From: an uncultured Candidatus Saccharibacteria bacterium | GTDB lineage: Bacteria > Patescibacteriota > Minisyncoccia > Phycocordibacterales > PALSA-1337 | Length of the DNA: 64,000 nucleotides | Direction: 5' to 3' | Assembly: GCA_964357605.1 (NCBI GenBank) | Contig: CAYHLX010000004.1 | Coordinates: 1,081 to 65,080, forward strand | Program-made: the position numbers and the translations under genes | The notes under the pieces: model-generated | Databases searched by the model: none | The model's input: only the letters and a program-made list of their open reading frames with translations | What the model was told of the DNA's origin: nothing | Shown here: positions 10,345-55,354 of the stretch, piece after piece | Numbering within the stretch: position 1 is the first letter of the stretch | Layout: every line of letters starts with the position of its first letter

Positions 10345-13300
10345 CTACTTATCAATACTCATTTTGAGAGCAAATTCTCCGATCGTCATAATTTCCCCTT
10401 CTAGATTTTCAAACTTTAAATCTTTCAGGAGAGTAGTTGAGAAAATGGAATTTTTATTTTTCATGATTAACTCTTGGGCTTTTGAATCTGCATCGATCTT
10501 AAGTATGATCTTATCTTGTATTGTAAAACCTTTCTCTTTTCTAAGGTCCTGAATAGTTCTAGTAAGTTCGCGAACAACTCCTTCTTCCTTCAATTCTGCA
10601 GTCAAAACTATGTCTAGCACAACCTCCTCCAAGATCGCTACGTCTGTGACCACCTCTTTAACATTTACCTCATCTTGAATAATCTTGACAAGATGAGCTG
10701 GAAATAAACCTTTGACAGTAAGTTTAGCCAATGGCTGTCTAACATTTATTTTAGCTTTCATACGGGCCTCGAGTCCTGTAGACGCTATCTGCCTTACTTC
10801 TTTCATATCAGAAAGAATTTTTTCATCTGGCTTTTTTAACTCTGGCCATTCCTCTAAATGAACACTTTCTTTTTCCCCTTTTACTCTCTGGTAGACATCT
10901 TCTGCTAGAAAAGGCATGAAAGGAGCTAACAGTTTAGAGAGATCCAAAAGAATCTTTCTTGTTGTAGAAAGAGCAGATCCCCTTTCATTGGCATCATCAT
11001 TCTTAAATCTATCCCGTGATCGACGAACATACCAAGTAGAAAGATCATCAATAAACTCGGCAAATGGTCTGGTCGCCCGATCTACTTCGTATTTTTCAAG
11101 GTTATCAGTCACCTCTTTACTCAACTCAGAAAGTCTCGCCGTAATCCATAAATCCAGAGGATCAACACTTTCAACTTCACTGGGAACATTTTTTGAGTAC
11201 ATCTCGTAGAAAGTCACGACGTTGTTCAAACGTCCAATATGTTTTTTAACAACCTCATCGACTCCCCGTTCGGAAAAACAAACATCTTGACTTCTCACCA
11301 CCGGAGATGACATCAGGAAATAACGCAGAGCATCCGCTCCATACTTATTTATCACCAAATTCAAATCAGGATAGTTTTTCTCCCTTTTCGACATCTTCCT
11401 ACCATCTTCTGCTAATACGAGACCATTGACCACCACTTTCTTGTATGGTGCTCTGCCAAACAAAGCCACTCCCAAAACCATCATAGAGTAGAACCATCCT
11501 CTGGTCTGATCCAAACCTTCGGCAATGAAATCGGCTGGATATCCCTTGGTCTTACCTAAAATCTTAGTAAATGGACCTGGTTTGGGGTTAAAATCACATT
11601 TTTCAAATGGATAGTGAGCTTCTCCAAAAGGCATGGAGCCAGATTCAAACCAGCAATCAAAAACTTCTGGAATTCTCGTAAGCTTATTTCCTTTTTCAGA
11701 AACAAGTTTCAGGTCATCAATGTATGGACGGTGGAGATCTGTTTCATATTCAGCATTATGTGGAAGCGGGTGAAAATCAAGCTTTCGGGGTTTGGCATTT
11801 TCATTGTAGTGATCACTGTGTCCCCTAAATAGAATAGATTCTATTCTATCCAAACCCCTCACCACAGTCTCCAAGAGAAAAAGGGGGGTGTCATGAGAAA
11901 TAATCAAGATATTTTTTCCTACATATTTCTTTTCTAGATCATAGAGCACCTCGCCCATTCTTTTTTTTATTTCTGTATAGTTCTCTCCGCCTTCAGGGAC
12001 ATCTATAAACCGATCTGCTTCTTTAAAGTGTGTCACAAAATCATGAAAGTTTTTGCCATTCCAGATTCCCGCATTTAATTCCTTCAATCTTTCATCAGTC
12101 AAAATATTTTTTCCATCAAGCCCTATTTCTCTGGCCACAATTTCTGAGGTCTGTTGTGTCCTCGGAAAAGGAGAGGTTACGATGAGATCTATTTTTTTAT
12201 CTTTCAGCCACTTTCCAGCTTCCTTGGCTTGTTTTTTTCCTTTTTCAGTTAGGTTGTGAGGATTGCTGGCGAGCGAACTGATCATAGAGGTGACGTTGTT
12301 GTCTGCTTCCCCATGGCGACTGACATAATAAGTATTTTTCGCATGGCTGTATTTTTTTAAGTCGGCAATGGAAGAGAGGATGTGACATGTGTCAGTTTTC
12401 TCTTCTCTCCAGACTGGCAATGGTGCTCCCCAGAAACGAGACCGCGAAATCGCCCAATCACGAGCACCCAAAAGCCAATTACCAAACCTCCCCTCTCCGA
12501 CTTCAGCTGGTGTCCATTTTACTTTTTTATTTTCTTTAACTAATTTATCTTTTAGATCTGTCACTTTTACAAACCAGGATGAAGAAGCATAATTTAAAAG
12601 TGGAGTATCACAACGCCAACAGTGTGGGTATGAGTGGATTAGTTTTTCTTTGGCAAAAAGAGTACCGTGAGCGGCAAGGTATTTGATGATCTCGATATCG
12701 GCTTTTTGATGTTTGTCTTTTTCTTCTTCGGTGGATTTCGGTTTGACATCAAGACCTACAAAATCCGTCACTTCTGATTTAAATTTACCATTTGTTCCAA
12801 CATGTTGAACAAAGGGTAAATTGTGTTTAAGAGATAACTCGTAGTCATCCGCCCCAAAGGCCGGAGCAATGTGCACGATCCCTGTTCCGTCCTCTGTCGT
12901 GACAAAATCACCCCCATAAACTTTCCAACCATTTTCCTTATTTTTTAATTTTGTATCTTTAGAATAGTAATCAAAAACTGGTTTGTATGATTTTCCAATA
13001 AGATCTTTTCCCTTGATTTCAGAGATTTGAGTATGATCAATTTTTATGGCAGATAGTCTAGATTTAGCGACATAGAAAAAATCGTTGTTTATTTTTATTT
13101 TGACATACTCAACCTCTGGACTAACGGCGAGAGCCACATTTCCAGGCAAGGTCCACGGTGTGGTTGTCCAGGCCAGAAAATAAGTACCCGGTTCATCAAC
13201 AAGCTCAAACTTCACATAGACAGAAATATCGGTGATGTCTTTATATCCTTGGCTCACCTCAAAATTGGAAAGAGTGGTCTCGCAACGCGGGCAGAGATTC

Positions 13301-13833
13301 ATAGACTTGAACCCTTCGTAAACCAAACCTTTCTTGTGTAATTCAGCAAAAGCCCACCAAACCGATTCTGTATACGTCGTATCCATGGTTCGATAATCAT
13401 TTTCCATATCTACAAAACGGCCAAGTCTGGGAATGATTCTTCTCCAATCATCGGCATATCTCATGACACTAGCTCGAGCTTTTTCATTAAATTTTTCTAT
13501 GCCATACTCAACGATATCTTTTTTTGAGGCGAGATTTAATTCTTTTTCTACAATATTTTCCACTGGCAAACCGTGACAATCCCAACCCCATCTACGACGT
13601 ACACGATAACCCTTCATCGTCTTGTATCGTGGAATCAGATCCTTTACCGTCCCCGGTACGACATGACCATAATGCGGTTCCCCAGTGGCAAAAGGAGGAC
13701 CGTCATAAAAGATAAAATCACCCTTGGGAGATTCTTTCTCAAGAGTTTTTTTGAAAATACCCTTTGCTTGCCAAAATTCCAGGATTTTCTCTTCAGTTAG
13801 GGCAACTTTACTTTTTTCCATATTAAATGCCAT
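10345..13833 (-). CDS. ileS: Isoleucyl-tRNA synthetase (type 2, eukaryote-like) with an inserted histidine-phosphatase (PGAM-like) domain
   Basis: DGPPFATGEPHYGH, zinc knuckles CPRC/CWRC around the CP1 editing domain, and KMSKR. About 200 aa (aa 495-690, nt 11764..12351) with RHGEADNN...LTEKGKKQA...ISHD lie between WGAPLPVW and TDLHRPY. One continuous frame. Confidence 0.85.
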   Translation of the reverse strand: MAFNMEKSKVALTEEKILEFWQAKGIFKKTLEKESPKGDFIFYDGPPFATGEPHYGHVVPGTVKDLIPRYKTMKGYRVRRRWGWDCHGLPVENIVEKELNLASKKDIVEYGIEKFNEKARASVMRYADDWRRIIPRLGRFVDMENDYRTMDTTYTESVWWAFAELHKKGLVYEGFKSMNLCPRCETTLSNFEVSQGYKDITDISVYVKFELVDEPGTYFLAWTTTPWTLPGNVALAVSPEVEYVKIKINNDFFYVAKSRLSAIKIDHTQISEIKGKDLIGKSYKPVFDYYSKDTKLKNKENGWKVYGGDFVTTEDGTGIVHIAPAFGADDYELSLKHNLPFVQHVGTNGKFKSEVTDFVGLDVKPKSTEEEKDKHQKADIEIIKYLAAHGTLFAKEKLIHSYPHCWRCDTPLLNYASSSWFVKVTDLKDKLVKENKKVKWTPAEVGEGRFGNWLLGARDWAISRSRFWGAPLPVWREEKTDTCHILSSIADLKKYSHAKNTYYVSRHGEADNNVTSMISSLASNPHNLTEKGKKQAKEAGKWLKDKKIDLIVTSPFPRTQQTSEIVAREIGLDGKNILTDERLKELNAGIWNGKNFHDFVTHFKEADRFIDVPEGGENYTEIKKRMGEVLYDLEKKYVGKNILIISHDTPLFLLETVVRGLDRIESILFRGHSDHYNENAKPRKLDFHPLPHNAEYETDLHRPYIDDLKLVSEKGNKLTRIPEVFDCWFESGSMPFGEAHYPFEKCDFNPKPGPFTKILGKTKGYPADFIAEGLDQTRGWFYSMMVLGVALFGRAPYKKVVVNGLVLAEDGRKMSKREKNYPDLNLVINKYGADALRYFLMSSPVVRSQDVCFSERGVDEVVKKHIGRLNNVVTFYEMYSKNVPSEVESVDPLDLWITARLSELSKEVTDNLEKYEVDRATRPFAEFIDDLSTWYVRRSRDRFKNDDANERGSALSTTRKILLDLSKLLAPFMPFLAEDVYQRVKGEKESVHLEEWPELKKPDEKILSDMKEVRQIASTGLEARMKAKINVRQPLAKLTVKGLFPAHLVKIIQDEVNVKEVVTDVAILEEVVLDIVLTAELKEEGVVRELTRTIQDLRKEKGFTIQDKIILKIDADSKAQELIMKNKNSIFSTTLLKDLKFENLEGEIMTIGEFALKMSIDK

Positions 13834-25716: not shown

Positions 25717-26628
25717 ATGAAAAAATCAATAAAACAATACGTAGTCGCGGTAGTCCTTGGTTTAGGTATAGTTCTGGGTGTTGGTTCTCTACAAGCCCAG
25801 TGGACTGCTCCTAGTGCCACTCCTCCAGATGGAAATGTCCCCGCTCCTTTGAATACTGGGAATAGCAGTCAGAGCAAACTTGGACAATTAATCGTCAATA
25901 CTAATACTACTTCCAACGGCCCTGGTCCTTTTGCTGTTGGTCTTTCTGTTTTTGGTAAGACTATTTTAAATGGCGGAGTCCAGATCCCTGCTGGCGCGGG
26001 AGATAACAAGGTTTTGACAAGTGATGCTAGTGGAAATGGAACGTGGCAGGATGCAACGGGGGGTGTAGGTGGTGGCAGTGGAACTTGGGGGAGAATATAT
26101 ACCTATCGCACTGCTATTGATTTCAATAATGGAGTTTCTGATTGGATAACAATCAGTCTACCAAATGGAGATACAATGACCGCAGCATCTCTACGTTATG
26201 GCGGTAGAGATAATTACTTATATGATACTCCAACCCAACTTAGTTCATTTGACGATGCACAATCATACATTGAAATTAATACTGCAGAATCTAAATTAAG
26301 AGTACATTTGCTGAATACTGATCACGTCACTCCGAATACCACATATGATTCAGGTACGTATTTTAATTATGTATATCTAAATATTTACACCGGTAGTCCT
26401 GGGGGCAGTAGTGGAACTCCAACTGGTACAATCAGAGGATATGGCACTGGAGCTTACGCATACTCAACTCAAGCCAACACCTCTTGCACAGCAGTTTCTG
26501 CACCATTTTCATGTTCTGGCGTTTCTCCAGTATGTGAGTCCGGTTGGAGTGTGATCTCTGCTGGAAATCAATATGGAAGCTGTGCAGGATCCACTTGTTC
26601 CAAAATCTACATGTGCGTCAAAAACTAG
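25717..26628 (+). CDS. Hypothetical secreted protein, Gly/Thr-rich with a Cys-rich C-terminus
   Basis: Signal peptide MKKSIKQYVVAVVLGLGIVLGVGSLQA and 9 Cys in the last 60 aa. Confidence 0.45.
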   Translation: MKKSIKQYVVAVVLGLGIVLGVGSLQAQWTAPSATPPDGNVPAPLNTGNSSQSKLGQLIVNTNTTSNGPGPFAVGLSVFGKTILNGGVQIPAGAGDNKVLTSDASGNGTWQDATGGVGGGSGTWGRIYTYRTAIDFNNGVSDWITISLPNGDTMTAASLRYGGRDNYLYDTPTQLSSFDDAQSYIEINTAESKLRVHLLNTDHVTPNTTYDSGTYFNYVYLNIYTGSPGGSSGTPTGTIRGYGTGAYAYSTQANTSCTAVSAPFSCSGVSPVCESGWSVISAGNQYGSCAGSTCSKIYMCVKN

Positions 26629-26636
26629 CTGCACCC

Positions 26637-26685
26637 CTCCACCTCGCAAAGATTCCGCACGGTAAAAGCCGGGCGGTTTCTTTTT
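26637..26685. repeat. 49-bp direct repeat, copy 1 (terminator-like hairpin inside)
   Basis: ctccacctcgcaaagattccgcacggtaaaagccgggcggtttcttttt is identical to 27578..27626. Confidence 0.9.
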
Positions 26686-26726
26686 TCCCACTGGAAAAGA
26701 TAGAAAGCTTATGGTATAATACACCT

Positions 26727-26915
26727 ATGAAAAACTGGTCAACTGACACGAGAGAGCTAGAAAAAAACCATCAGCAGCTCGAGATATGGAAACTCGAACA
26801 ACTTATTAACTTTGGTCTAGACGGAAAAAAACTTAACAAAGAAACCCTAAAAAAGTATTGGGCTTCCCTCTCTCTAGATCCTTATAAAAAAAAGTTCTTA
26901 TCTCTTTTTCTTTAA
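26727..26915 (+). CDS. Small ORF (62 aa) translationally coupled to the AbiEii-like gene; possible cognate antitoxin
   Basis: TATAAT at 26715-26720. Its stop overlaps the next start (TAATG). Confidence 0.3.
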   Translation: MKNWSTDTRELEKNHQQLEIWKLEQLINFGLDGKKLNKETLKKYWASLSLDPYKKKFLSLFL

Positions 26916-27574
26916 TGAGTTCCATACTTTCAGAAAATCAGAAAAATTTGATCTCACTCATTGGAAAAGAATCTTCTCTGTGTAACGCTTTTTATTTAGG
27001 AGGAGGCACTGCACTCGCAGAATTTTATCTCCATCATAGATTATCTGAAGATCTTGATTTCTTTTCTGAGAATGAATTTGATCCTATGAGTATTACTGTC
27101 TTCTTCAAAAAAATCGAGAGAGAAGCGGGAATATTAAGAACTGAATATGAGCAGAGCTTTAACCGCAATCTTTTTTTTCTTGAACTCAAGAATGACAGAA
27201 TTAAGACTGAATTTACATATTTTCCCTTCCAGAGAGTTGAGAAAGACAATTATTTTAAAAATATCCAAATAGATAGTCTTCTAGATATAGCTATCAATAA
27301 AGTCTTTACCATTTATCAAAAACCTCGTTCGAGAGACTTCATCGATCTTTACTGTATATTACAAAAGGAAAAAGATTGGACTCTCGAAGAACTTGGAAAA
27401 AAAGCTCAGATCAAGTTCGACACGTATCTTGATCCGATCCAACTTGGCTCCCAACTTGTTAAGGTAACAGAATTAAAAGATTATCCACGAATGATCATTG
27501 AACTTAAGGAGAAAGACTGGCAAGATTTCTTTTTACATGAAGCAAGTAAATTGGAGAAAAGAATTCTGAGTTAA
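26915..27574 (+). CDS. AbiEii/AbiGii-family nucleotidyltransferase (type IV TA toxin / abortive-infection family)
   Basis: Motif LGGGTALAEFYLHHRLSEDLDFF. Confidence 0.75.
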   Translation: MSSILSENQKNLISLIGKESSLCNAFYLGGGTALAEFYLHHRLSEDLDFFSENEFDPMSITVFFKKIEREAGILRTEYEQSFNRNLFFLELKNDRIKTEFTYFPFQRVEKDNYFKNIQIDSLLDIAINKVFTIYQKPRSRDFIDLYCILQKEKDWTLEELGKKAQIKFDTYLDPIQLGSQLVKVTELKDYPRMIIELKEKDWQDFFLHEASKLEKRILS

Positions 27575-30134: not shown

Positions 30135-30689
30135 ATGTTAAAATCTTACGCTAGTAGAAATCACGAAGCCATGAAAGAGGTTCTCATGTCTCCAAATGAA
30201 AGTGGGCCAGAAATTCATTATTACATGATTCGAGGAGGAGATAGTAAAACAAATATCACCATTTGGGAAAGCGGTACTGTTGGAGAAGAATACATCAAAA
30301 CCTATGGTCACTACCACGTCGGAGATCTCGAGGAAGATTACACCGTCCTACAGGGAGAAGGAGTTATTATTCTCCAAGGGCAGATCGTAGACGATAGTAT
30401 TGAGACTTTTAGAGCCATCAAAGTCAAAGCTCACGACAAAGTCCATATCCCAAAAAATACCGGCCATTTAGCCATTAATACTGGAAATGTGTGGTTTGTC
30501 ACTTCAGACAATAGCCCCGTCAATTTTGAAGAAAAAGATGCCGTTTCCCTTCCGGGACATGCTGATTATAGCCAGTTCAAAAGACTACGCGGAGCAGCGT
30601 ACTATGTGGTAAAAAAAGATAACGAACCCACCTTGGTCAAGAATCCTTTATACAAAAAAGTACCCGAAGTAAAAATAGAAAATCTATGA
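30135..30689 (+). CDS. Cupin-type (archaeal-type) glucose-6-phosphate isomerase
   Basis: TYGHYHVGDLEEDYTVLQGEG metal-binding motif and a downstream His. Confidence 0.65.
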   Translation: MLKSYASRNHEAMKEVLMSPNESGPEIHYYMIRGGDSKTNITIWESGTVGEEYIKTYGHYHVGDLEEDYTVLQGEGVIILQGQIVDDSIETFRAIKVKAHDKVHIPKNTGHLAINTGNVWFVTSDNSPVNFEEKDAVSLPGHADYSQFKRLRGAAYYVVKKDNEPTLVKNPLYKKVPEVKIENL

Positions 30690-32177
30690 ACCCCTCTGTT
30701 CTGGTTGACCACCACGAATAGCGCGGTATTTGTCTTTATACTTTGCAATAGTCTGTTCCACCTCATCATTAGGAATTTCCACACGTAACAAGTCAATAGC
30801 GTTAATTGTATCGTAAATATCTAATTTATTCTCAAGCTTATACATTGCATCTCTCCACAAAATCGCTTTTTCATATTCACGGCTATCGATAGATTCTTTT
30901 TCCAGTCTTTTCATCATATCCATAAAAGCATGGTATACCCCTTCTTCCGCACCTCCAAGTCCTACTGTTCTTTCCTTAAAAGGAATCCTCAAAACAGATC
31001 TTTGTTCTGACATCATCTGCCTAATCTTTCCGGTCCTCTGCCAAGTAAACGCTGTGGAGATTATTTTTTCATACAGATCACTAGCCTTGGCAAGTTTTTC
31101 CCCTGAAACATCAGGAATCATGCGGATCGTATCCAGTAGTCTCCACGCGCCATCTTCTATCATCTCTAAACTCCACCAAGGTTTGGCCGACGCCCACCAA
31201 AAATGGTCGCTAGCTGTACCGATATCCATCCGATGTTTTACTTCTCGATATTTTGCATGGGTGTCATCCATCACACGAACCTCACCTCTCACCAGATGAA
31301 AAAGCTCCCACTGCCATTTATGAACACTATTTTCAGGATCTTTCCAAGATAGAAACTGCACTCCCCTTTCTATATCCTCTTTACTACTAGCCCAAGTAGA
31401 TTTGACCGGAGAAATTTCTACTTCTTCACGGTCCTCAGAAAGCAGATCTGATAAAGTAACTAAGTTAAAATCTTTTGTATCAAAAATATCAAAAAGAAAT
31501 TTCTCCAATCCAGGTCTATGATGTCCAAAAGTTTCTCCGTCCATCGCCGTTACGACATATCTAGAACTTGAGAGGTCTTCCTTCATCGCTTCTTTCAGGG
31601 TTTCTTTTGAACGAACTACGGCACTCATGATAAGATTGCTCAATCTTCTCTCTCTAAATAAAACTTTTAGTTTTGAATCCTTAATCTTGTAGATTTTTGT
31701 ATAGTCAACCTTTCCAGGTTCGCCGCATAGAGCAATTTCATCCAAGAGAATCCATTCCAATCCTAGAGATTCGACAATTGGTATTATCTTTGGATCATAG
31801 CCCATTTCCGGAGGAAAAAATCCCTTTGGTTTATAGGCTTTCCCTAAATAAAAAGAATTAGTTTCATCGTTGATCTTGATCTGACGAACGATATCTTCTT
31901 CGTCTAACAAAGGGAGGAATCCATGATACTTGAGAGAACTAGTGAATTCTATTTTTCCATCTTCGCCCGCCTGCTTTAACATACTAATAAGATCTTGATA
32001 TCCATGCTTATCAAAAAGTTCCAGAAGTGCTCCAGTAATATTGAACGTCACGCGAACATTAGAAGTATTGACGATATGAGAGATGATTGGTCGATAACTT
32101 TGAGTAACAATCGCTTCTAGAATATCTTTTTGTTGATCAGCCGGCTGATAAATGTGAAGAAAATTTCCCCAGTTCAT
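30684..32177 (-). CDS. Glycoside hydrolase family 57 protein (alpha-glucan branching/processing)
   Basis: N-terminal HIYQP (HQP-like) and DGETFGHH motifs. Confidence 0.65.
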   Translation of the reverse strand: MNWGNFLHIYQPADQQKDILEAIVTQSYRPIISHIVNTSNVRVTFNITGALLELFDKHGYQDLISMLKQAGEDGKIEFTSSLKYHGFLPLLDEEDIVRQIKINDETNSFYLGKAYKPKGFFPPEMGYDPKIIPIVESLGLEWILLDEIALCGEPGKVDYTKIYKIKDSKLKVLFRERRLSNLIMSAVVRSKETLKEAMKEDLSSSRYVVTAMDGETFGHHRPGLEKFLFDIFDTKDFNLVTLSDLLSEDREEVEISPVKSTWASSKEDIERGVQFLSWKDPENSVHKWQWELFHLVRGEVRVMDDTHAKYREVKHRMDIGTASDHFWWASAKPWWSLEMIEDGAWRLLDTIRMIPDVSGEKLAKASDLYEKIISTAFTWQRTGKIRQMMSEQRSVLRIPFKERTVGLGGAEEGVYHAFMDMMKRLEKESIDSREYEKAILWRDAMYKLENKLDIYDTINAIDLLRVEIPNDEVEQTIAKYKDKYRAIRGGQPEQRGS

Positions 32178-32178
32178 A

Positions 32179-33735
32179 TTATTTATTTGAATGAATTTCT
32201 ATGGCTCTAGTAAAAAGAGCCAAGTATTTCTTTGCTGAGCCTGTCCATGAAAAATCTTTAGACATCGCTCTTTTGATGAGCTCTTGCCATTTTTTCTGGT
32301 CTCTAAAATTTTCAAAAGCTCTAATGAGAGCAATCATAAGAGAAGATGAGTCAAATCTTTCAAAAACAAAGCCTGTGCCAGTCTGCTTGTCAGGATTATA
32401 ATCCTCCACACTATCGGCCAAGCCACCAGTCTTTCTCACAATAGGTATACAACCCATTCTCATGGCCTCCATTTGGACCAATCCACAAGGTTCAAAACGA
32501 GAAGGAACTAGAACGACATCGGCCCCAGAGAAAACTAAGTGGGGTAAGATCGCATCAAATTTTAAATGGTTTGCTACCCTACCAGGGTGACGACTCTCGA
32601 GATCATGCATGAAACCCATGATATCCGATTCGCCCTCACCGACCACCACCAGTTGAATAGGTAGTTCTTGGATGAGAAGATCGGCAATAGGCATGAGAAG
32701 ATCTAGACCTTTCTGTTTTGATAGGCGACCAACAATGGCAATCAAAAAAGTATCCTTTTTTACAGAGAGACCGAAACGTTCCTGCAAAATACCTTTATTC
32801 TTAATTCTTTCACTCAACTGCTTCACGTCATATGGAAAATTTATATATTTATCGGTCTCTGGATTCCAGTAATCATAATCAATACCGTTAAGAATGCCCG
32901 ACAAAACTGCTCTCCTTTCACGCAATAGATCGTCGAGGAGCTCCCCGTAGTCTTTGGTCATGATTTCTCTAGCATAATTTGTAGAAACAGTATTTATCGC
33001 ATCAGCATACATGATTCCTCTTCTCATATAGTTAATTTTTGACAACCTAGGGTTATCCAGACTTGGGATTGGAGAGTGTCCATCATCAAAATCCATCTCC
33101 GAAACAAAGTGATGATCAAAGGTTCCTTGGAAAAATAAATTGTGTATAGAAAAGACTGTAGCAATTTTAGAAAGTACTGGATCAGTAGAATATACAGTTT
33201 TTAGATAATTAGGAATCAAGCCAAGTTGCCAGTCCAAAGAAACAATCACGTCTGGTACCCACTCACTTTTTTTCAAAAACTCCAAAGTCCCTCTACAAAG
33301 CAGAGCCCACCTTATAGCATCATCAGCATACCCGTAGACATTGGCTCTCTGTTCATAATACTCCTGATTTTCTAGAAAATAACTAGTTACCCCCGCTCCA
33401 GAACCATTTGGTTCGCACTTTTTGATGTTGCAAATGAGCGTTTTTGGACCATTTTCATTCTCTGTTGGTACATTCAAACCCTCATGTTCCATACTCAAGT
33501 GAAAAACCCTATCATCGATAGATAAGTATCTAGGCAACATCACTCTTGCATCACATCCAAGTTCAGAAAGAGCTTTGGGTAATGAATACATAACTGACGA
33601 GAGACCACCAACTTTCACAAAAGGAGCTGCTTCTGTACCAACAAGTAGAATTTTCAGCCCCTTTTTACCCCTCAGACTGCTTGTAAATATAGACATGTAG
33701 GAGAAAATTATAGCAAAATAATCACCACTTATCAA
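32179..33735 (-). CDS. glgA: Glycogen/starch synthase (GT5)
   Basis: KILLVGTEAAPFVKVGGLSSVMYSLPKAL N-terminal ADP-glucose binding motif. Confidence 0.85.
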   Translation of the reverse strand: MISGDYFAIIFSYMSIFTSSLRGKKGLKILLVGTEAAPFVKVGGLSSVMYSLPKALSELGCDARVMLPRYLSIDDRVFHLSMEHEGLNVPTENENGPKTLICNIKKCEPNGSGAGVTSYFLENQEYYEQRANVYGYADDAIRWALLCRGTLEFLKKSEWVPDVIVSLDWQLGLIPNYLKTVYSTDPVLSKIATVFSIHNLFFQGTFDHHFVSEMDFDDGHSPIPSLDNPRLSKINYMRRGIMYADAINTVSTNYAREIMTKDYGELLDDLLRERRAVLSGILNGIDYDYWNPETDKYINFPYDVKQLSERIKNKGILQERFGLSVKKDTFLIAIVGRLSKQKGLDLLMPIADLLIQELPIQLVVVGEGESDIMGFMHDLESRHPGRVANHLKFDAILPHLVFSGADVVLVPSRFEPCGLVQMEAMRMGCIPIVRKTGGLADSVEDYNPDKQTGTGFVFERFDSSSLMIALIRAFENFRDQKKWQELIKRAMSKDFSWTGSAKKYLALFTRAIEIHSNK

Positions 33736-36053
33736 ATCTTGAGATTAATATACAACAACTTGAGATAATTATCTAACATTTTAGATGTCGTGTAAGATTT
33801 TTCTACAAGCTCCATAGTGCTTTGCATCTTTTCTGTCCAATTCTGCCTAGAACCCTCAGATGATTCGGCGTAAAAACAAGGTAAGATCTCATGTTCGAGA
33901 AGATCGTAGAGAACCTGAGCAGTGTTTTCTTCTGGCAAGATCCAACCACGATTGGCCCAATTTACCTCATCCACCCAGCCATCAGAGATACTGCATTGCA
34001 AAGCTCCATTGAGACTGGCCTTCATGCCACTAGTCCCGCAAGCCTCTTTACCTCTTTCTGGAGTATTAAGCCACACGTCTGCACCTTTCACTAATTCATG
34101 CGAAATTGCCACGGAATAATTTGGAATATAGATTACCCTTCCCATCGTCTCTGGATCCTCTGAAATCTCCATGATCTTTTTTATGATTTCTTGACCCTCA
34201 CCATCTGCCTCATGAGCTTTTCCAGCAATCACAAACTGGACTGGATTTTCTTGGTTTCTAATGATTTTTTTAACTCTTTCATAATCAGAAAAAAGTAGGA
34301 ATGGCCTTTTATACGCAGCAAATCTTCTAGCCCAAACCACCGTACATACATCCGGATTGAGTTTTTTACCAAGACTCTCTCTAATATAATCCGCTAGACC
34401 GATTCTTAGTTTTTTCTTGATCTCCCAGATCTCTTTACTGGAAACATCGTGGTTCCGGGTAATAAATTCTTTCACTTGCCAACGCTTTCGGTAAACTCCA
34501 TTGGTAATAGAAATCAGTTCACTATGTGGATGTCGAATCTTTTCAAAGACAGCATGGAGAGCGCTCACGCTATTTTTGATTTTAGAAGTAGTCATGACCA
34601 ATTTGGTAGTGGAAAAAGTATCTGGATCTAGTTCGTATTTACCTTTCTCAAATATTTCGTTAATATCTACTCCAAATTCTTTACAGTATGTGTTAAGTAA
34701 GACAAAGAAGTCTTTTTTTGGAATATAAAGTCCAGCGGCAGACAAAATAGTATGCTTTGTACCGACAATCTTCCCGATATCTTCATTTCTCTCCACCAAC
34801 ACCCCTACCCCAGCAAAAGCCGTGTGTCCCTCATTTAAATGATAAACACTTGGATGAATATCTAACAGCTTCAAAAATTTTATTCCGCCAATACCAAGTA
34901 CAATCTGTTGTTTAACACGTGTGTAAAAATGTGGATCGTATAGATGAGAGGTAATATTTCTATGCTTATCATCATTTTTTTCAAAGTTTGTATCCAAGAG
35001 AAAAACATGAGTATTCTCGGCAAACCTCCTGTGCCAGATTTGAGCATATATCAGATGTTCACCTATCGGTATTGAGACTACCGCTGACTTACCTTGATGA
35101 CTAAAAATAGCAAAATCCTTTAGATTACCTGGATCATAATTAAGTCCTATGGCAATAAACGGCATGTTTTTATCTGCCATCTCCATCAAGTAGTCCCCGG
35201 CGAGAATACCCAATCCACCCGCATACATGAGAGTATTTTCCTCTATCGCATATTCGGCACAAAAATAAGCTATAGGGTTCTGTGGGATAGAAATGGTGGG
35301 ATTATTTTTCTCACCAAACCAACTCCTAATGACACCTTCAGTGTGAGTTGGACCGTCTACTTTTACCGTCTTAATTCCATCTTCCATAACCGAGTAATCA
35401 TTGCCTCCAGGAAAAACTGCGTCTCCCAAAAAAATCACGTCTTTTTTATCTATCTTTATTTTTTCCAACAAAATCCCCAATCCATAAGCCTTATCAAAAC
35501 CCTTTGGTAAAATATCGACCGAGGTCGTGCCGGCCACCGTCGCATCTACCTCAGGAATTTTTCTTTCAATTTCCTTTTCTATTTTTCTTCTCTTTTTCTG
35601 ATCTGGATCCCATTTTTCTTTAATTTCTAGTGGGGCATCTTGTCCCATGGCAGAAAGATTGATCTCAGTATCACGATCTTCAACATATTTTCCTTGATGT
35701 TCTTTTGGTATTTCAAACAGACCAGAATCGATAATCTCACCCAAAGCCTTTATCACTTTTTCCTTGATTGATTTTTTAAATTCATGTTTATCCGTTAACT
35801 GCCATTTTTTTGACTCTGAATTATATTCAAATCGCTCACTGCCATCCACCGGCAAGAGAATGATATTTTTAGATGGTTTGATAAAAGGTAAAAGCTGTTT
35901 TTCAAACTGCACAATAGAACCTCCAGAAATTATTGCAACTTTTGTTGTTTCGGAAAGTTTCTGCAAAAGACCTGCCATCTCTGGAGTAATCGGTGTTTTG
36001 CTACGAGTCAAAGTACCATCAAGATCAAAAGCTGTTAGTTTATAGGGGAACAT
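33732..36053 (-). CDS. Fusion protein: N-terminal eukaryotic-type phosphomannomutase (HAD-IIB, PMM family) and C-terminal alpha-glucan phosphorylase (GT35)
   Basis: N-terminal domain (nt 35304..36053): FDLDGTLT, IISGGS, TSVDILPKGFDK, FLGDAVFPGGNDYSV, matching human PMM2 blocks. C-terminal domain: AYFCAEYAI...YAGGLGILAGDYL and TSGMKASLNGAL (PLP lysine region). Confidence 0.8.
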   Translation of the reverse strand: MFPYKLTAFDLDGTLTRSKTPITPEMAGLLQKLSETTKVAIISGGSIVQFEKQLLPFIKPSKNIILLPVDGSERFEYNSESKKWQLTDKHEFKKSIKEKVIKALGEIIDSGLFEIPKEHQGKYVEDRDTEINLSAMGQDAPLEIKEKWDPDQKKRRKIEKEIERKIPEVDATVAGTTSVDILPKGFDKAYGLGILLEKIKIDKKDVIFLGDAVFPGGNDYSVMEDGIKTVKVDGPTHTEGVIRSWFGEKNNPTISIPQNPIAYFCAEYAIEENTLMYAGGLGILAGDYLMEMADKNMPFIAIGLNYDPGNLKDFAIFSHQGKSAVVSIPIGEHLIYAQIWHRRFAENTHVFLLDTNFEKNDDKHRNITSHLYDPHFYTRVKQQIVLGIGGIKFLKLLDIHPSVYHLNEGHTAFAGVGVLVERNEDIGKIVGTKHTILSAAGLYIPKKDFFVLLNTYCKEFGVDINEIFEKGKYELDPDTFSTTKLVMTTSKIKNSVSALHAVFEKIRHPHSELISITNGVYRKRWQVKEFITRNHDVSSKEIWEIKKKLRIGLADYIRESLGKKLNPDVCTVVWARRFAAYKRPFLLFSDYERVKKIIRNQENPVQFVIAGKAHEADGEGQEIIKKIMEISEDPETMGRVIYIPNYSVAISHELVKGADVWLNTPERGKEACGTSGMKASLNGALQCSISDGWVDEVNWANRGWILPEENTAQVLYDLLEHEILPCFYAESSEGSRQNWTEKMQSTMELVEKSYTTSKMLDNYLKLLYINLKI

Positions 36054-36122
36054 GTATTATATATTAACATGTGTTAGTGGTGATGTTCAAAACTAGGGAG
36101 AAGTGATAGAATCAAAAAACAC

Positions 36123-41569: not shown

Positions 41570-41644
41570 TGGGGTGACTAGAGGGAATCGAACCCTCGAC
41601 GCCGCTGCCACAGAGCGGAGTTTTACCATTAAACTATAGCCACC
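41570..41644 (-). tRNA. tRNA-His (anticodon GTG) with encoded G-1 and CCA
   Basis: Cloverleaf folded by hand. Anticodon loop CTGTGGC. The extra 5' G pairs with discriminator C. Confidence 0.85.
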
Positions 41645-42025: not shown

Positions 42026-42109
42026 TGGTGCCCAGGAGAGGATTCGCACCTCCACGCCTTACGGCACACGCACCTCAAGCGTGCTTGGCTACTGTTACAA
42101 CACCTGGGC
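42026..42109 (-). tRNA. tRNA-Leu (anticodon GAG), type II with a long variable arm, CCA encoded
   Basis: Acceptor GCCCAGG/CCTGGGC and anticodon stem CACGC/GCGTG with loop TTGAGGT. Confidence 0.8.
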
Positions 42110-42784
42110 ATTAATGCTTTCTTGTTTCTTCACTATACCCAAACTTTTCTTTATTTTCAAGTACTTTCTAGTTAAAAATAGGCTCTCTTTATTTTTATAC
42201 ATATATTTGAAAAGTATGACTGACTCATTTTTTGCATATTTTAACTGAAAACAAGACTGATTTTTTGATTTGGTAATATGCCCTTTTATTTCAATTTCTT
42301 TACGTAGAGTATCTTGTAACCAGGTAATATGCTTTTTACTTGCAGATATAAATTCCAAATACAACATAAAACTTGATTTCCATCTTTTATCCCAATAGGA
42401 GTATGAGCATCCATCTCCATCAAAACTTCCTCTTATGAAGTCTCTCATGTATTTTTGTGGAACATCTATCTTTCCTATAGTTTTTGATTTATTAGATGTC
42501 AAACCAATCGACTGAAGAAATTTGTAAAATAAAACATCACCTATTTGAATAACATAGTATTTCTTTTCAGACCCTGATCCACTTCCTTTCATACAGTAAT
42601 CGTATGAAATACTTAGAGCTTTCTGAAAATTATCGACCATTTCTTTATCTATAGATGTAAAAGAGATATGCCTATTATCTGGTGATAAGTTCCCATCAGT
42701 TGCAATAAGCCCGATCGCATACGCAAAATTAGCTGACCATTTGATCTTCACTTTACCTCTTGGTTTTGGTCCTCTCTTCCCCAT
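42095..42784 (-). CDS. LAGLIDADG-family homing endonuclease (two-motif, free-standing)
   Basis: AYAIGLIATDGNLS and FIRGSFDGDGCSY motifs. The 3' end overlaps the 5' end of tRNA-Leu by 15 nt. Confidence 0.65.
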   Translation of the reverse strand: MGKRGPKPRGKVKIKWSANFAYAIGLIATDGNLSPDNRHISFTSIDKEMVDNFQKALSISYDYCMKGSGSGSEKKYYVIQIGDVLFYKFLQSIGLTSNKSKTIGKIDVPQKYMRDFIRGSFDGDGCSYSYWDKRWKSSFMLYLEFISASKKHITWLQDTLRKEIEIKGHITKSKNQSCFQLKYAKNESVILFKYMYKNKESLFLTRKYLKIKKSLGIVKKQESINAQVL

Positions 42785-44343: not shown

Positions 44344-45122
44344 ACGAGCCTTTTTTTGGCAAATTCCTCCATCCCTAGCTCCTTCATCGCCTCTTTAAAA
44401 TCTTTAGGTAAAGGAGCGGTCACCATTATCTCTTTCCCCTTACGATTTTTGAAGGAAATAAAGAAAGCGTGCAAAGCGGTTCTTTGAAACCCCAGAGCCA
44501 CTGGTTTATCACTAGCATAAAGCCTGTCACAGACCACTGGGTGATTAATTGCCTTAAAATGCACTCTGATCTGGTGTGTCCTACCAGTCTTCGGTTCTAT
44601 CTCCACCAAAGAAAATCCAGACTTAAAAGCCATCATCGTCCACCAAGTTTCCGCCTCTCTCATCTCTCCCTTTGCTCCACGAGTCGCCGAAAATCTTCTA
44701 AAATCACTAGGACTTTTGCCGATTGGACGATTGATAATTCCGTACTTCTCTTTCATATCACCGTAAACAAAAGCAAAATATTTCTTGGATACGATTCTAT
44801 TTTGAAATTGCTCTTTCAAGTGAGCGTAGCCTTTTTTGGTCTTAGCAATGAGCATCACGCCTGAGGTTCCTCTATCTAGTCTATGTACAATTCCTGGACG
44901 CTCTATAGTCTTCCCCTCTCCTGTAACAATAGGTTCTCCCACCCCCTTAGTCTTGGGGTACTTTTTTATAATCCAATCTACCAGAGTCGGTTCTTCCGTT
45001 CTACCATCAGAATGCACCACCAAACCAGCCGGCTTGTTAATGGCCAAAATGTCCGGATCTTCATATAAAATTGTAATGGTATTGTTTTTCAAATTAATTG
45101 TTTCTTTAGACCCTCTATCCAT
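44340..45122 (-). CDS. RluA-family pseudouridine synthase (second copy)
   Basis: [16 protein letters not shown]. Confidence 0.8.
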
Positions 45123-45751
45123 CCGAGTATCCTAAGCAAGAGCTTTGTATCGCCAACTCCGACGTCAAGAGTACCATATTTTAAAGTTTTACGAAGATTT
45201 TTTGAACTTTTACTTTTAATTGCATATGTTTTAAAAAACTGAGAGAGTGGTATCTTAGTAATTTCTGACCAATATTTCTCTGCTTCTTTTACTATTTGAG
45301 TAGAGTGAACATGGATATGAGCGCGGAATCTACTTTCCTCAACCTTACATATTTCCCTAAAAAATCTCATTCCCATCATTATCATGAACGGATCGCTATT
45401 ACTAATACGAGCCATACCTTTTGATGTCTTAGCTCCTTCACCCCAATACAAACCGAGACCTAATATTTTAAGAGATTCGTGATCTATTTTTCTAATCTCT
45501 CTAGATGCCAAATCAATAATTTGACTCTTTTTATAAGATTCGTTTTTCAATCTACTCTGACGCCTCTTTTCAACCACCTCAGGAGAATGGCTTCTTCTTT
45601 TTAAATTTAGTTTTTGCTGTGAAGTTAGGGTAATATCTCTAACCCAAGTACTCACACTTCCCTTAGCGACAGACAACTCTTCAGAAATATCTTTTACAGA
45701 GTATCCTTTACTTCTCATTTCTACAGCTTTTTGTTTTATTTTAGGCTTCAT
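45089..45751 (-). CDS. HTH-domain protein with one LAGLIDADG-like motif (homing-endonuclease-like)
   Basis: N-terminal HTH (YSVKDISEELSVAKGSVSTWV) and ILGLGLYWGEGAK. Confidence 0.4.
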   Translation of the reverse strand: MKPKIKQKAVEMRSKGYSVKDISEELSVAKGSVSTWVRDITLTSQQKLNLKRRSHSPEVVEKRRQSRLKNESYKKSQIIDLASREIRKIDHESLKILGLGLYWGEGAKTSKGMARISNSDPFMIMMGMRFFREICKVEESRFRAHIHVHSTQIVKEAEKYWSEITKIPLSQFFKTYAIKSKSSKNLRKTLKYGTLDVGVGDTKLLLRILGWIEGLKKQLI

Positions 45752-54319: not shown

Positions 54320-55354
54320 TTAGTCATAAAAAAGCCTTGCTATAGAATCTTTAATTTTCTCACTTTTACAATGAGAGAGCATACCGAGATAAGATTGCAT
54401 TGATTGTTCAAGAAATTCTTTGGTGATTTTTCCTTCTTCGTATGAACATTTTAGTTTTCGTATTTTATTGAGCATCCTTCTCTTGGTTCTCGTCCTCAAA
54501 ACTTTGTGGTGTGGTAAGGATACATAGCCAAGAAAATCCGTCCCTGTGTTCAATTTTCTTATAGTTACCTTATTTGGATGAAGTTCCATCCGAAGATTAT
54601 CTGTTAAAAATGATTGGATTTTTAAAATACACTCTTGTAAAAAGTCTCTGGAGTTATGAACGATAACAAAATCATCACAGTAACGAATATAATATTTCGT
54701 TTTGAGTGTATGTTTGCAAAATTGATCTAGCTCATTGAGATAGATATTTGCGAATACCTGGCTAGTTACATTGCCCAAAGGCAAACCTTTTCCCTGCGTC
54801 ACCTTAAATGAATCTATGATTTTATTAAGAAGATCTAAAAGCTCCTCGTCATGTACCCTCTTTCCCACCAGAGATTTGAGAACTTGGTGATCAATTGAAT
54901 CAAAGAATTTTCTGATATCGCATTTAAGAACAAAAGCTTGCTGTGTATAATTTCTAGAAACCTTTCTTGAAAATTGTTCCAATCTCTCTACTCCCTTGTG
55001 AGTACCTTTGTCATCTCTTGACGCAAAAGAATCATGAATAAAAGTCTTATCAAAAACCTGATATAATGCCTGATACAGAGCTTGGTAAAGGACCCTATCA
55101 CGGACACTCGCTTTGTGAATTTTCCTCAATTTCGGATCTTGGACATAGAATGCCTTGTATGGATCAGGCTTCCACTTACCAATAATTAGTTCGTTGCAAA
55201 GACTAAAAAGATTTTCCTCCAAATTAAACTCAAATTCTGCAACTTCTTTTTTTGATCTTTTTCCTTTTCTAAATCTTTTCCACGCCCGAAACAGATTTTC
55301 AAGACTTATTACATCACAAAAATTCAAACTATGACGCCCCCCCCCCGAACACAC
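54320..55354 (-). CDS. Diversity-generating retroelement reverse transcriptase
   Basis: 344 aa with RT motifs, YCDD box, and the DGR-specific motif-4 signature LGNVTSQVFANIYLNELD. GTG start directly followed by a G10 tract. Confidence 0.85.
   Translation of the reverse strand: MCSGGGRHSLNFCDVISLENLFRAWKRFRKGKRSKKEVAEFEFNLEENLFSLCNELIIGKWKPDPYKAFYVQDPKLRKIHKASVRDRVLYQALYQALYQVFDKTFIHDSFASRDDKGTHKGVERLEQFSRKVSRNYTQQAFVLKCDIRKFFDSIDHQVLKSLVGKRVHDEELLDLLNKIIDSFKVTQGKGLPLGNVTSQVFANIYLNELDQFCKHTLKTKYYIRYCDDFVIVHNSRDFLQECILKIQSFLTDNLRMELHPNKVTIRKLNTGTDFLGYVSLPHHKVLRTRTKRRMLNKIRKLKCSYEEGKITKEFLEQSMQSYLGMLSHCKSEKIKDSIARLFYD

Follow-up and report, generated by a model that had tools for sequence, protein, structure and literature searches.

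In a 64,000-nucleotide stretch of contig CAYHLX010000004.1 from an uncultured Candidatus Saccharibacteria bacterium (hereafter the window), a single minus-strand gene at 33732..36053 encodes a 773-aa protein that joins a PgmH-like domain of the HAD-IIB/phosphomannomutase (PMM) family to an alpha-glucan phosphorylase domain. Judging from its sequence, this protein is probably a bifunctional enzyme of glycogen/alpha-glucan breakdown that would release glucose-1-phosphate (G1P) and then turn it into glucose-6-phosphate (G6P), a reading to which we give a probability of about 0.75. The gene belongs to a module of three minus-strand genes, the other two encoding a GlgA glycogen/starch synthase and a GH57 glycoside hydrolase, and a convergent plus-strand gene for a cupin-type phosphoglucose isomerase (cupin PGI or cPGI). 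A first-pass annotation had called four open reading frames (ORFs) here; all are present, each has the Pfam or NCBIfam match expected of it, and the Pfam families proposed for them (PF03332, PF00343, PF06560, and PF03065) were all found. The family scores of all four proteins are far beyond chance.

The fusion gene is uninterrupted, with its stop codon at 33732..33734 and none inside, and Pfam and NCBIfam models confirm the earlier description of a PMM domain followed by a GT35 phosphorylase with motifs of the pyridoxal phosphate (PLP) site. The N-terminal domain (aa 1-245, 35319..36053, minus strand) matches the PMM model PF03332 over aa 28-240 with 60.6 bits (cut-off 22.4) and the HAD-IIB model TIGR01484 with 82.9 bits (cut-off 41.8); the generic model Hydrolase_3 reaches 48.9 bits, below PF03332. 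The PMM-family motifs quoted in the first-pass annotation, FDLDGTLT, ISGGS, TSVDILPKGFDK, and FLGDAVFPGGNDYSV, all occur in the translation. When residues 1-251 were searched against all PDB sequences, the best match was the alpha-phosphoglucomutase (alpha-PGM) PgmH of Lactococcus lactis (4BND; aa 5-243, E 1e-34, 123 bits), followed by eukaryotic and protist PMMs (E 9e-21 for PMM2 to 5e-12, at most 77 bits). The top 17 matches comprise one alpha-PGM sequence (two near-identical chains) and 15 PMM entries, and these are nearly full-length. Generic HAD phosphatases matched at E 1e-6 or weaker (at most 31 bits), over ~40-55 residues around motif IV. The domain does not, then, fall to a generic HAD phosphatase, and the proposal that it acts as a phosphoglucomutase (PGM) is backed by a best match that was deposited as an alpha-phosphoglucomutase.

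The catalytic residues of the HAD domain are intact. Motif I (DxDxT) is present as D10 (the nucleophile), D12 (at the place of the general acid/base), and T14, and motifs II to IV, among them GD...GGND with its acidic Mg2+ ligands, as S43, K188, D211, N218, and D219, all of which are invariant in 45 fusions and 77 bacterial domains. In human PMM2, phosphate is bound by K189 of the core and by R134 and R141 of the cap, R21 is the clasp residue, and R123 is mentioned only among active-site patient mutations (PMC4263888). K188 of the window domain occupies the position of PMM2 K189, and its cap residues K19, R127, Q138, and K145 align to R21, R123, R134, and R141, respectively. Position 19 is K/R, and position 145 is Lys in 76 of the 77 bacterial domains.

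In a neighbor-joining (NJ) tree rooted on PMM2, a single clade holds PgmH, the fused and free domains of the Candidate Phyla Radiation (CPR), and free domains of many phyla, and a long branch parts this bacterial clade from PMM2. As far as sequence places it, the N-terminal domain is a bacterial PgmH-type domain, "Eukaryotic phosphomannomutase" being only the name of the Pfam model; the earlier description "eukaryotic-type" repeated that label and does not hold. PgmH is reported to be the essential alpha-PGM of L. lactis and to be unrelated to the classical phosphohexomutases (Neves et al. 2006; Nogly et al. 2013, as cited in PMC9537760 and PMC4263888). PgmH and the window domain have in common the HAD-IIB fold family, a PMM-type cap, the DxDxT, S, K, GD...GGND, and WDPD motifs, and a Gln/Lys pattern (Q138/K145 here) where PMM2 has R134/R141. 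They differ in that PgmH is a free-standing protein of ~250 aa from a Firmicute, 32% identical, whereas the domain here is joined to a phosphorylase, and in position 180, which is Asn in PgmH and Asp here, as in PMM. PMM1 and PMM2 (PF03332) belong to the same family and share the catalytic Asp pair and the two-domain core/cap mechanism via hexose-1,6-bisphosphate. However, they are less similar to the window domain (E 1e-20 to 1e-12), they fall outside the clade of the bacterial domains, and the cap arginines R134 and R141 of PMM2 are replaced by Gln and Lys. PMM2 itself has been assayed for phosphoglucomutase activity (PMC4263888).

The C-terminal domain (aa 260-773, 33735..35276, minus strand) is a GT35 alpha-glucan phosphorylase of the short TIGR02094 type, with 418.1 bits to that model (cut-off 191.7, best stretch aa 317-769) and 87 bits to PF00343. 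Its closest structure is the glycogen phosphorylase of Segatella copri (9L6I, 852 aa; phmmer E 1.6e-84, Foldseek E 2.5e-44, about 30% identity), and the phosphorylases of E. coli and of mammals match far less closely. The PLP lysine, K678, lies in EACGTSGMK, which aligns to EASGTSGEK of 9L6I, and E670, G673, T674, S675, G676, and K678 are invariant in the 45 fusions. The basic cluster at the phosphate/substrate site of muscle phosphorylase is KRxxxYKR. In the phosphate site of the window protein, ARRFAAYKRP, all 45 fusions have R577, Y581, and K582, and at least 90% of them have R576 and R583; conservation extends to the HLNEGH and TNGV motifs. The domain shares with the S. copri enzyme the GT35 core, the EA(S/C)GTSG.K PLP motif, and the RRFxxYKR phosphate site, but lacks roughly its first 107 and last 140 residues. 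At ~515 aa, equivalent to 9L6I residues 110-710, it does not have the full-length architecture (~800-850 aa with N- and C-terminal extensions), and free-standing phosphorylase relatives from the CPR are also ~500-590 aa long. Being a minimal core, the domain may differ in how it is regulated and how it oligomerises. Unlike TIGR02094-type enzymes, the window protein has a HAD domain at the N-terminus; one homologue (P0116) has DUF3417 (PF11897) ahead of its phosphorylase domain.

The fusion recurs widely. A protein search returned dozens of full-length homologues of the same domain order (38-65% identity) from NCBI, JGI, ENA, and Logan assemblies, and a partial protein of another assembly (P0004), 100% identical to the window protein, covers the fusion junction. 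The best 120 database clusters, from which the window protein and two locus ORFs were counted apart, include 47 fusions of the same order, nine of the reverse order (phosphorylase then HAD), and 64 phosphorylase-only proteins. In the reverse-order proteins, the C-terminal HAD domain is complete (profile positions 4-249). The first-pass annotation had advised looking for a false fusion made by a frameshift and for split relatives: the continuous ORF, the identical junction in P0004, and the dozens of independent assemblies speak against the former, and same-order, reverse-order, and split versions all occur.

An AlphaFold2 (AF2) model built from 45 sequences folds both domains (mean pLDDT 90.5, pTM 0.68). 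Between them lies a linker of low pLDDT and variable length (about aa 246-259, 35277..35318, minus strand), with values below 50 at aa 248-253. The segment that matches window aa 244-262, and so holds the linker, is unconserved and 7-49 aa long in the 45 fusions. Because the linker is disordered in the model and variable in length, the two domains are probably flexibly tethered. The earlier claim that the fusion channels G1P directly to G6P thus stands in so far as two consecutive enzymes are joined; direct channelling, given a flexible linker of 7-49 aa, is speculative.

Fusion and fission took place more than once. In an NJ tree of the phosphorylase domain (100 bootstrap replicates), the reverse-order fusions form a clade (100/100), as does the main same-order group of 36 sequences, which includes the window protein (98/100); monophyly of all same-order fusions was recovered in 0/100 replicates. 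Smaller same-order groups are nested among unfused phosphorylases with 82-100/100: P0044/45 with eight unfused enzymes (98/100), P0038/39 with four (100/100), and P0040-46 with two (82/100). An NJ tree of the HAD domain parts the same groups. From these sequence trees, at least two independent fusions, one N-terminal and one C-terminal, are secure and further ones likely; because the trees are NJ, the exact number of events is uncertain.

The fourth protein of the module, a cupin PGI of 184 aa encoded at 30135..30689 on the plus strand, scores 66.4 bits to PF06560 (cut-off 20.7) and carries the GHYH...E motif. All its PDB matches below E 0.001 are cupin PGIs of Pyrococcus and Thermococcus. T56, G58, H59, H61, E67, Y69, H111, N115, H142, and Y145 are invariant in five orthologues and line up with residues that bind metal and substrate in the P. 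furiosus and T. litoralis enzymes; the start at 30135 also fits these orthologues. Like the archaeal cPGIs of Pyrococcus furiosus and Thermococcus litoralis (PF06560), the protein has the cupin fold, His-His-Glu-His ligands, and the TxGHxH...ExY and HxxxN motifs; unlike them, it is encoded by a bacterium, and it is very divergent (about 28 bits vs the solved enzymes). Cupin PGIs are typically archaeal, with restricted transfers to bacteria (PMC12525153).

The link to the adjacent cupin PGI, which had been proposed earlier, is backed by conserved synteny in related genomes. In L081 (fusion protein P0001, 65% identical), fusion-GlgA-GH57 is followed by a convergent cPGI gene and then by the DsbA/VKOR/methyltransferase neighbours of the window. 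The same four genes, arranged as fusion-GlgA-GH57 with a convergent cPGI, occur in L086 (P0043, 45% identical) and in L083 (P0006, an 825-kb contig), the latter with two genes inserted ahead of cPGI. A reverse-order fusion in L084 (P0066) is part of a single-strand run, cPGI-GlgA-GH57-(phosphorylase-HAD). At the P0053 locus (648-kb contig), an unfused phosphorylase-GlgA-GH57 run faces a free 257-aa PMM-like HAD gene and a cPGI gene, and these two overlap by 8 nt. Other loci hold parts of the module: L085 (P0062) has phosphorylase-GlgA-GH57 only, and L087 (P0052) has fusion-GlgA with genes for malic enzyme, G6P dehydrogenase, and 6-phosphogluconate dehydrogenase within 6 kb. A true split is seen in L003, a Patescibacteria metagenome-assembled genome, where the HAD gene ends in TGA and, after 4 nt, an ATG in another frame begins the phosphorylase, followed by GlgA and GH57. 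In L023 (Opitutaceae), a HAD ORF overlaps an 848-aa phosphorylase ORF (both stop-to-stop ORFs). Because the mutase-like gene is paired with the PGI gene and paired or fused with the phosphorylase gene, and because enzymes that consume G6P lie nearby, these loci point to a sequence of reactions from G1P to G6P to fructose-6-phosphate (F6P).

PgmH-like HAD genes also occur on their own. A contig search for HAD loci with six close sequences gave, among the matches listed, no fused versions, only free-standing or split HAD genes. Free genes of ~250 aa, with about 40% identity to the domain in the window, are widespread (L005-L080), and the matches listed include Mucilaginibacter, Chitinophaga, Novosphingobium, Sphingomonas, Eremiobacterota, Acidobacteriota, Actinomycetota, and Planctomycetota. 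In many genomes, inside and outside the CPR, the free gene has no module neighbours. By their similarity, the free PgmH-like HAD genes may be unrecognised alpha-phosphoglucomutases. As many CPR genomes hold the gene alone, fusion to the phosphorylase is optional.

The GlgA protein (GT5) scores 507 bits to TIGR02095 (NCBIfam cut-off 328.45) and has a KxGGL motif, KVGGL, near its N-terminus. Its longest ORF, 32179..33735, gives 518 aa from a TTG at 33735; the homologues in L081, L083, L084, and L086 are 504-512 aa long and begin M..F....KK.LKILFV. Because these lengths and N-termini match it, the ATG at 33696 is most likely the start (505 aa, 32179..33696, minus strand), and the TTG is less fitting. 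The earlier call at 32179..33735 was thus right about the enzyme and probably wrong about its start. Before the ATG lies a promoter-like site (33707..33735, minus strand; consensus match only) with TTGATA, a 17-nt spacer, TATAAT, and an extended TG, which agrees with the consensus at 11 of 12 positions. The region shows no excess of such sites (22 found vs 20.1 expected from shuffled sequence), so the site is a hint only, and counts of promoter and terminator sites in the module do not differ from those in shuffled sequence. In both the fusion gene (upstream region 36054..36122) and GlgA (33697..33735), a TATAAT-like box precedes the ATG by 2-10 nt and a Shine-Dalgarno sequence is not to be seen; these sequences hint at leaderless or very short-leader transcripts for the two genes.

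The GH57 enzyme (497 aa, 30684..32177, minus strand), whose gene overlaps the 3' end of the cupin PGI gene by 6 nt, scores 120 bits to PF03065 (cut-off 21.2) and has no C-terminal accessory domain detectable in the Pfam scan. Its catalytic pair is present, with the nucleophile E124 in conserved sequence region (CSR) 3 (FFPPEMG) and the proton donor D213 in CSR-4 (MDGETFGHH). Both residues are invariant in six orthologues, as are the motifs HxYQP, PE(M), DGETFGHH, and SD..(F/W)W. The closest solved relative, at only E 1.6e-8, is the 4-alpha-glucanotransferase of T. litoralis (1K1W), in which E124 and D213 align to WLTERV and HDDGEKFG, motifs that hold its residues E123 and D214. GH57 glycogen branching enzymes are marked by a Leu at logo position 23 and, at positions 35-36, by a Phe with a non-aromatic residue after it (PMC6037648). 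Here, position 23 is Thr216, an alpha-amylase-type residue, CSR-5 ends in F-W-W, and the NCBIfam branching-enzyme models give 28-29 bits against cut-offs of 920-1000. On this basis we rejected a branching-enzyme assignment: the protein is probably not a canonical branching enzyme, and an amylase-like, debranching, or disproportionating activity is possible. The earlier statement that GH57 and GlgA complete the storage side is not supported for GH57, which lacks the branching-enzyme fingerprint. The GH57 of L081 (L081:13860-15260) is only 38% identical to that of the window, although the fusion proteins are 65% identical, and it lacks the conserved C-terminal tail ...RGGQPEQRGS; the GH57 proteins of more distant genomes are 66-78% identical. 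This pattern suggests that the gene was replaced or is fast-evolving in the L081 lineage.

A search of all six frames of the 64-kb window found no phosphohexomutase Ser-loop, no GlgC GGxGxRL motif, and no classical PGI motif. Likewise, no classical PGM, GlgC, or classical PGI was found among the 24 window ORFs scanned against Pfam or, by eye, among the other ORFs, in agreement with the earlier report that classical PGM and GlgC are missing from the window.

We propose that the phosphorylase domain would use PLP and phosphate to cleave G1P from the ends of alpha-1,4-glucan chains, and that the HAD domain would convert G1P to G6P through an aspartyl-phosphate at D10 and a glucose-1,6-bisphosphate intermediate. 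The flexible tether would keep the two activities close and at a fixed 1:1 dosage, a more likely benefit than a sealed channel. The cupin PGI would then convert G6P to F6P, so that stored glucan would enter glycolysis or the pentose phosphate pathway in three steps and without ATP. GlgA, encoded in the same operon, would make the glucan, and GH57 would process or remodel it; as the mutase step is reversible, the same HAD domain could also supply G1P for synthesis.

Several points weigh against this proposal. The only characterised relative of the CPR clade, PgmH, is as distant as 32% identity, and we know of no sequence rule that cleanly parts HAD mutases from HAD phosphatases. The HAD domain would also need a supply of glucose-1,6-bisphosphate as its cofactor. 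In many CPR genomes the PgmH-like gene stands alone, a long way from any phosphorylase gene (e.g., L001, L002, and L004), and the absence of classical PGM, PGI, and GlgC holds for the 64-kb window only. With its disordered linker and a pTM of only 0.68 (mean pLDDT 90.5), the AF2 model gives evidence of neither a fixed interface nor a channel.

Among other explanations, we regard it as unlikely that the module is mainly synthetic, with cPGI converting F6P to G6P, the mutase converting G6P to G1P, and the phosphorylase elongating or priming glucan beside GlgA. This alternative concerns the direction of flux and not the identity of the protein. Both reactions are reversible, GlgA is encoded in the same operon, and no GlgC was found in the window or in the 5.5-10 kb flanks of related loci, all of which would suit synthesis. 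Cellular ratios of inorganic phosphate to G1P, however, normally push phosphorylases toward degradation, the fusion in L087 adjoins enzymes that consume G6P, and a GlgA that is of the ADP-glucose type by family (507 bits) would imply a nucleotide-sugar route of synthesis. Slightly less probable still is that the HAD domain is a sugar-phosphate phosphatase, e.g., a G1P phosphatase, so that the fusion would yield free glucose from glucan and return the phosphate, in net a "phosphorolytic hydrolysis". Most HAD-IIB proteins are phosphatases, the domain scores on the generic HAD-IIB models (Hydrolase_3, 48.9 bits; TIGR01484, 82.9 bits), PGAP names the 100%-identical fragment "HAD-IIB family hydrolase", and PMM1 has been reported to have phosphatase activity on bisphosphates. 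Against these stand the full-length similarity, cap included, to the PgmH and PMM mutases alone and the conservation of basic residues, required in a mutase, at the distal phosphate site. Moreover, the free HAD gene overlaps a gene for cPGI, an enzyme that needs G6P and not glucose, and dephosphorylation would waste the energetic advantage of phosphorolysis.

That the domain is instead a true phosphomannomutase for GDP-mannose or glycan synthesis, its proximity to the phosphorylase having no pathway meaning, we hold to be very improbable. The name of the top Pfam model and the residue D180, which is as in PMM2 and not as in L. lactis PgmH, would fit such a role, but the alpha-PGM 4BND scores about 46 bits above any PMM, the domain is repeatedly fused to a glucan phosphorylase in both orders, and in the loci read it clusters with cPGI, GlgA, and GH57 and never with mannose genes. 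A frameshift or misassembly that joined adjacent genes is conceivable in view of L003, where the same gene order is really split (stop codon, 4 nt, ATG, other frame). This origin of the fusion is effectively refuted by the continuous ORF, the identical junction in P0004, the recurrence of 47 same-order and nine reverse-order fusions across assemblies from four sources, and an AF2 model in which both domains fold. The reading of a glucan phosphorylase joined to a phosphoglucomutase is the one that we prefer. A more far-reaching version of it is tentative, and we think it somewhat more likely to be wrong than right: in reduced CPR genomes, the PgmH-type HAD domain would be the sole PGM and the cupin enzyme the sole PGI, both replacing the classical enzymes, and mutase and phosphorylase would have been fused at least five times, at either end, for real kinetic coupling (a high local concentration of G1P or retention of glucose-1,6-bisphosphate).

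The genes that flank the module are unrelated to it (AbiEii, SAM methyltransferase, VKOR, DsbA, ZIP transporter, M23 peptidase, YbjQ, and CYTH), and GC content is flat at about 0.38-0.40 over module and flanks alike, so that GC composition gives no sign of a recently acquired island. One of these flanking genes, at 26915..27574 (plus strand), encodes an AbiEii-type nucleotidyltransferase toxin (PF08843, 66 bits), and a short upstream ORF (26544..26915) might be the antitoxin. Elsewhere in the window, an isoleucyl-tRNA synthetase of 1162 aa (10345..13833, minus strand) has a histidine-phosphatase/phosphoglycerate-mutase-like domain (PF00300, 105 bits, aa 503-654) inserted between the two halves of its class I catalytic core. 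A LAGLIDADG_3 homing-endonuclease-like ORF (37.8 bits; 42095..42784, minus strand) lies about 450 nt from a tRNA gene (41573..41643), with a short 138-aa ORF between them; the ORF at 45089..45751 resembles it by eye and gave sub-threshold HTH matches only. A stand-alone reverse transcriptase ORF of 344 aa (54320..55354, minus strand; PF00078 RVT_1, 85 bits) could belong to a group II intron, a retron, or a diversity-generating element. The GC maximum of the window, 0.45, falls in the 56-58 kb bin, which starts about 650 nt past this ORF.

We found no description of a PGM-phosphorylase fusion in the literature searched, which left most subscription journals outside it and is thus weak evidence of absence, and a term search of 300,000 of the 445,374 characters of a review of prokaryotic alpha-glucan enzymes (PMC11046441) gave none. 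The portion of that review searched does mention pgm genes clustered in glg operons, and it describes a precedent in TreS-Mak (TreS-Pep2) of the GlgE pathway, where two consecutive alpha-glucan enzymes are likewise fused and are split in some lineages, although the enzymes, reactions, and taxa are unrelated to those of the PGM-phosphorylase fusion. The protein described here is a new domain architecture made from two known enzyme families, joining ordinary consecutive enzymes, and not a new kind of system. Conceptually the finding is moderately surprising, the fusing of consecutive enzymes being a familiar evolutionary theme.

In the source annotations these proteins are named after one half only ("alpha-glucan family phosphorylase", "starch phosphorylase", or "HAD-IIB family hydrolase"), so that a metabolic reconstruction of Patescibacteria would lack the phosphoglucomutase step. 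Once the PgmH-type domain is recognised, whether fused or free, that step is filled, and free PgmH-like genes of Bacteroidota, Sphingomonadales, Eremiobacterota, and Acidobacteriota that are now anonymous hydrolases may need relabelling. A domain that is fused at either end, split, or paired with a cupin PGI is a natural "Rosetta stone" for three consecutive reactions. Phosphorylase and PGM are the first two enzymes of the cell-free maltodextrin and starch systems known to us, which a compact natural fusion could serve. If the more far-reaching version, with its sole PGM, sole PGI, and kinetic coupling, holds true, the fusion would be a single-polypeptide "glucan to G6P" machine with direct use in cell-free starch-to-product pathways, a missing step in published CPR reconstructions would be re-annotated, and these bacteria would have an ATP-free entry from glucan into central metabolism.

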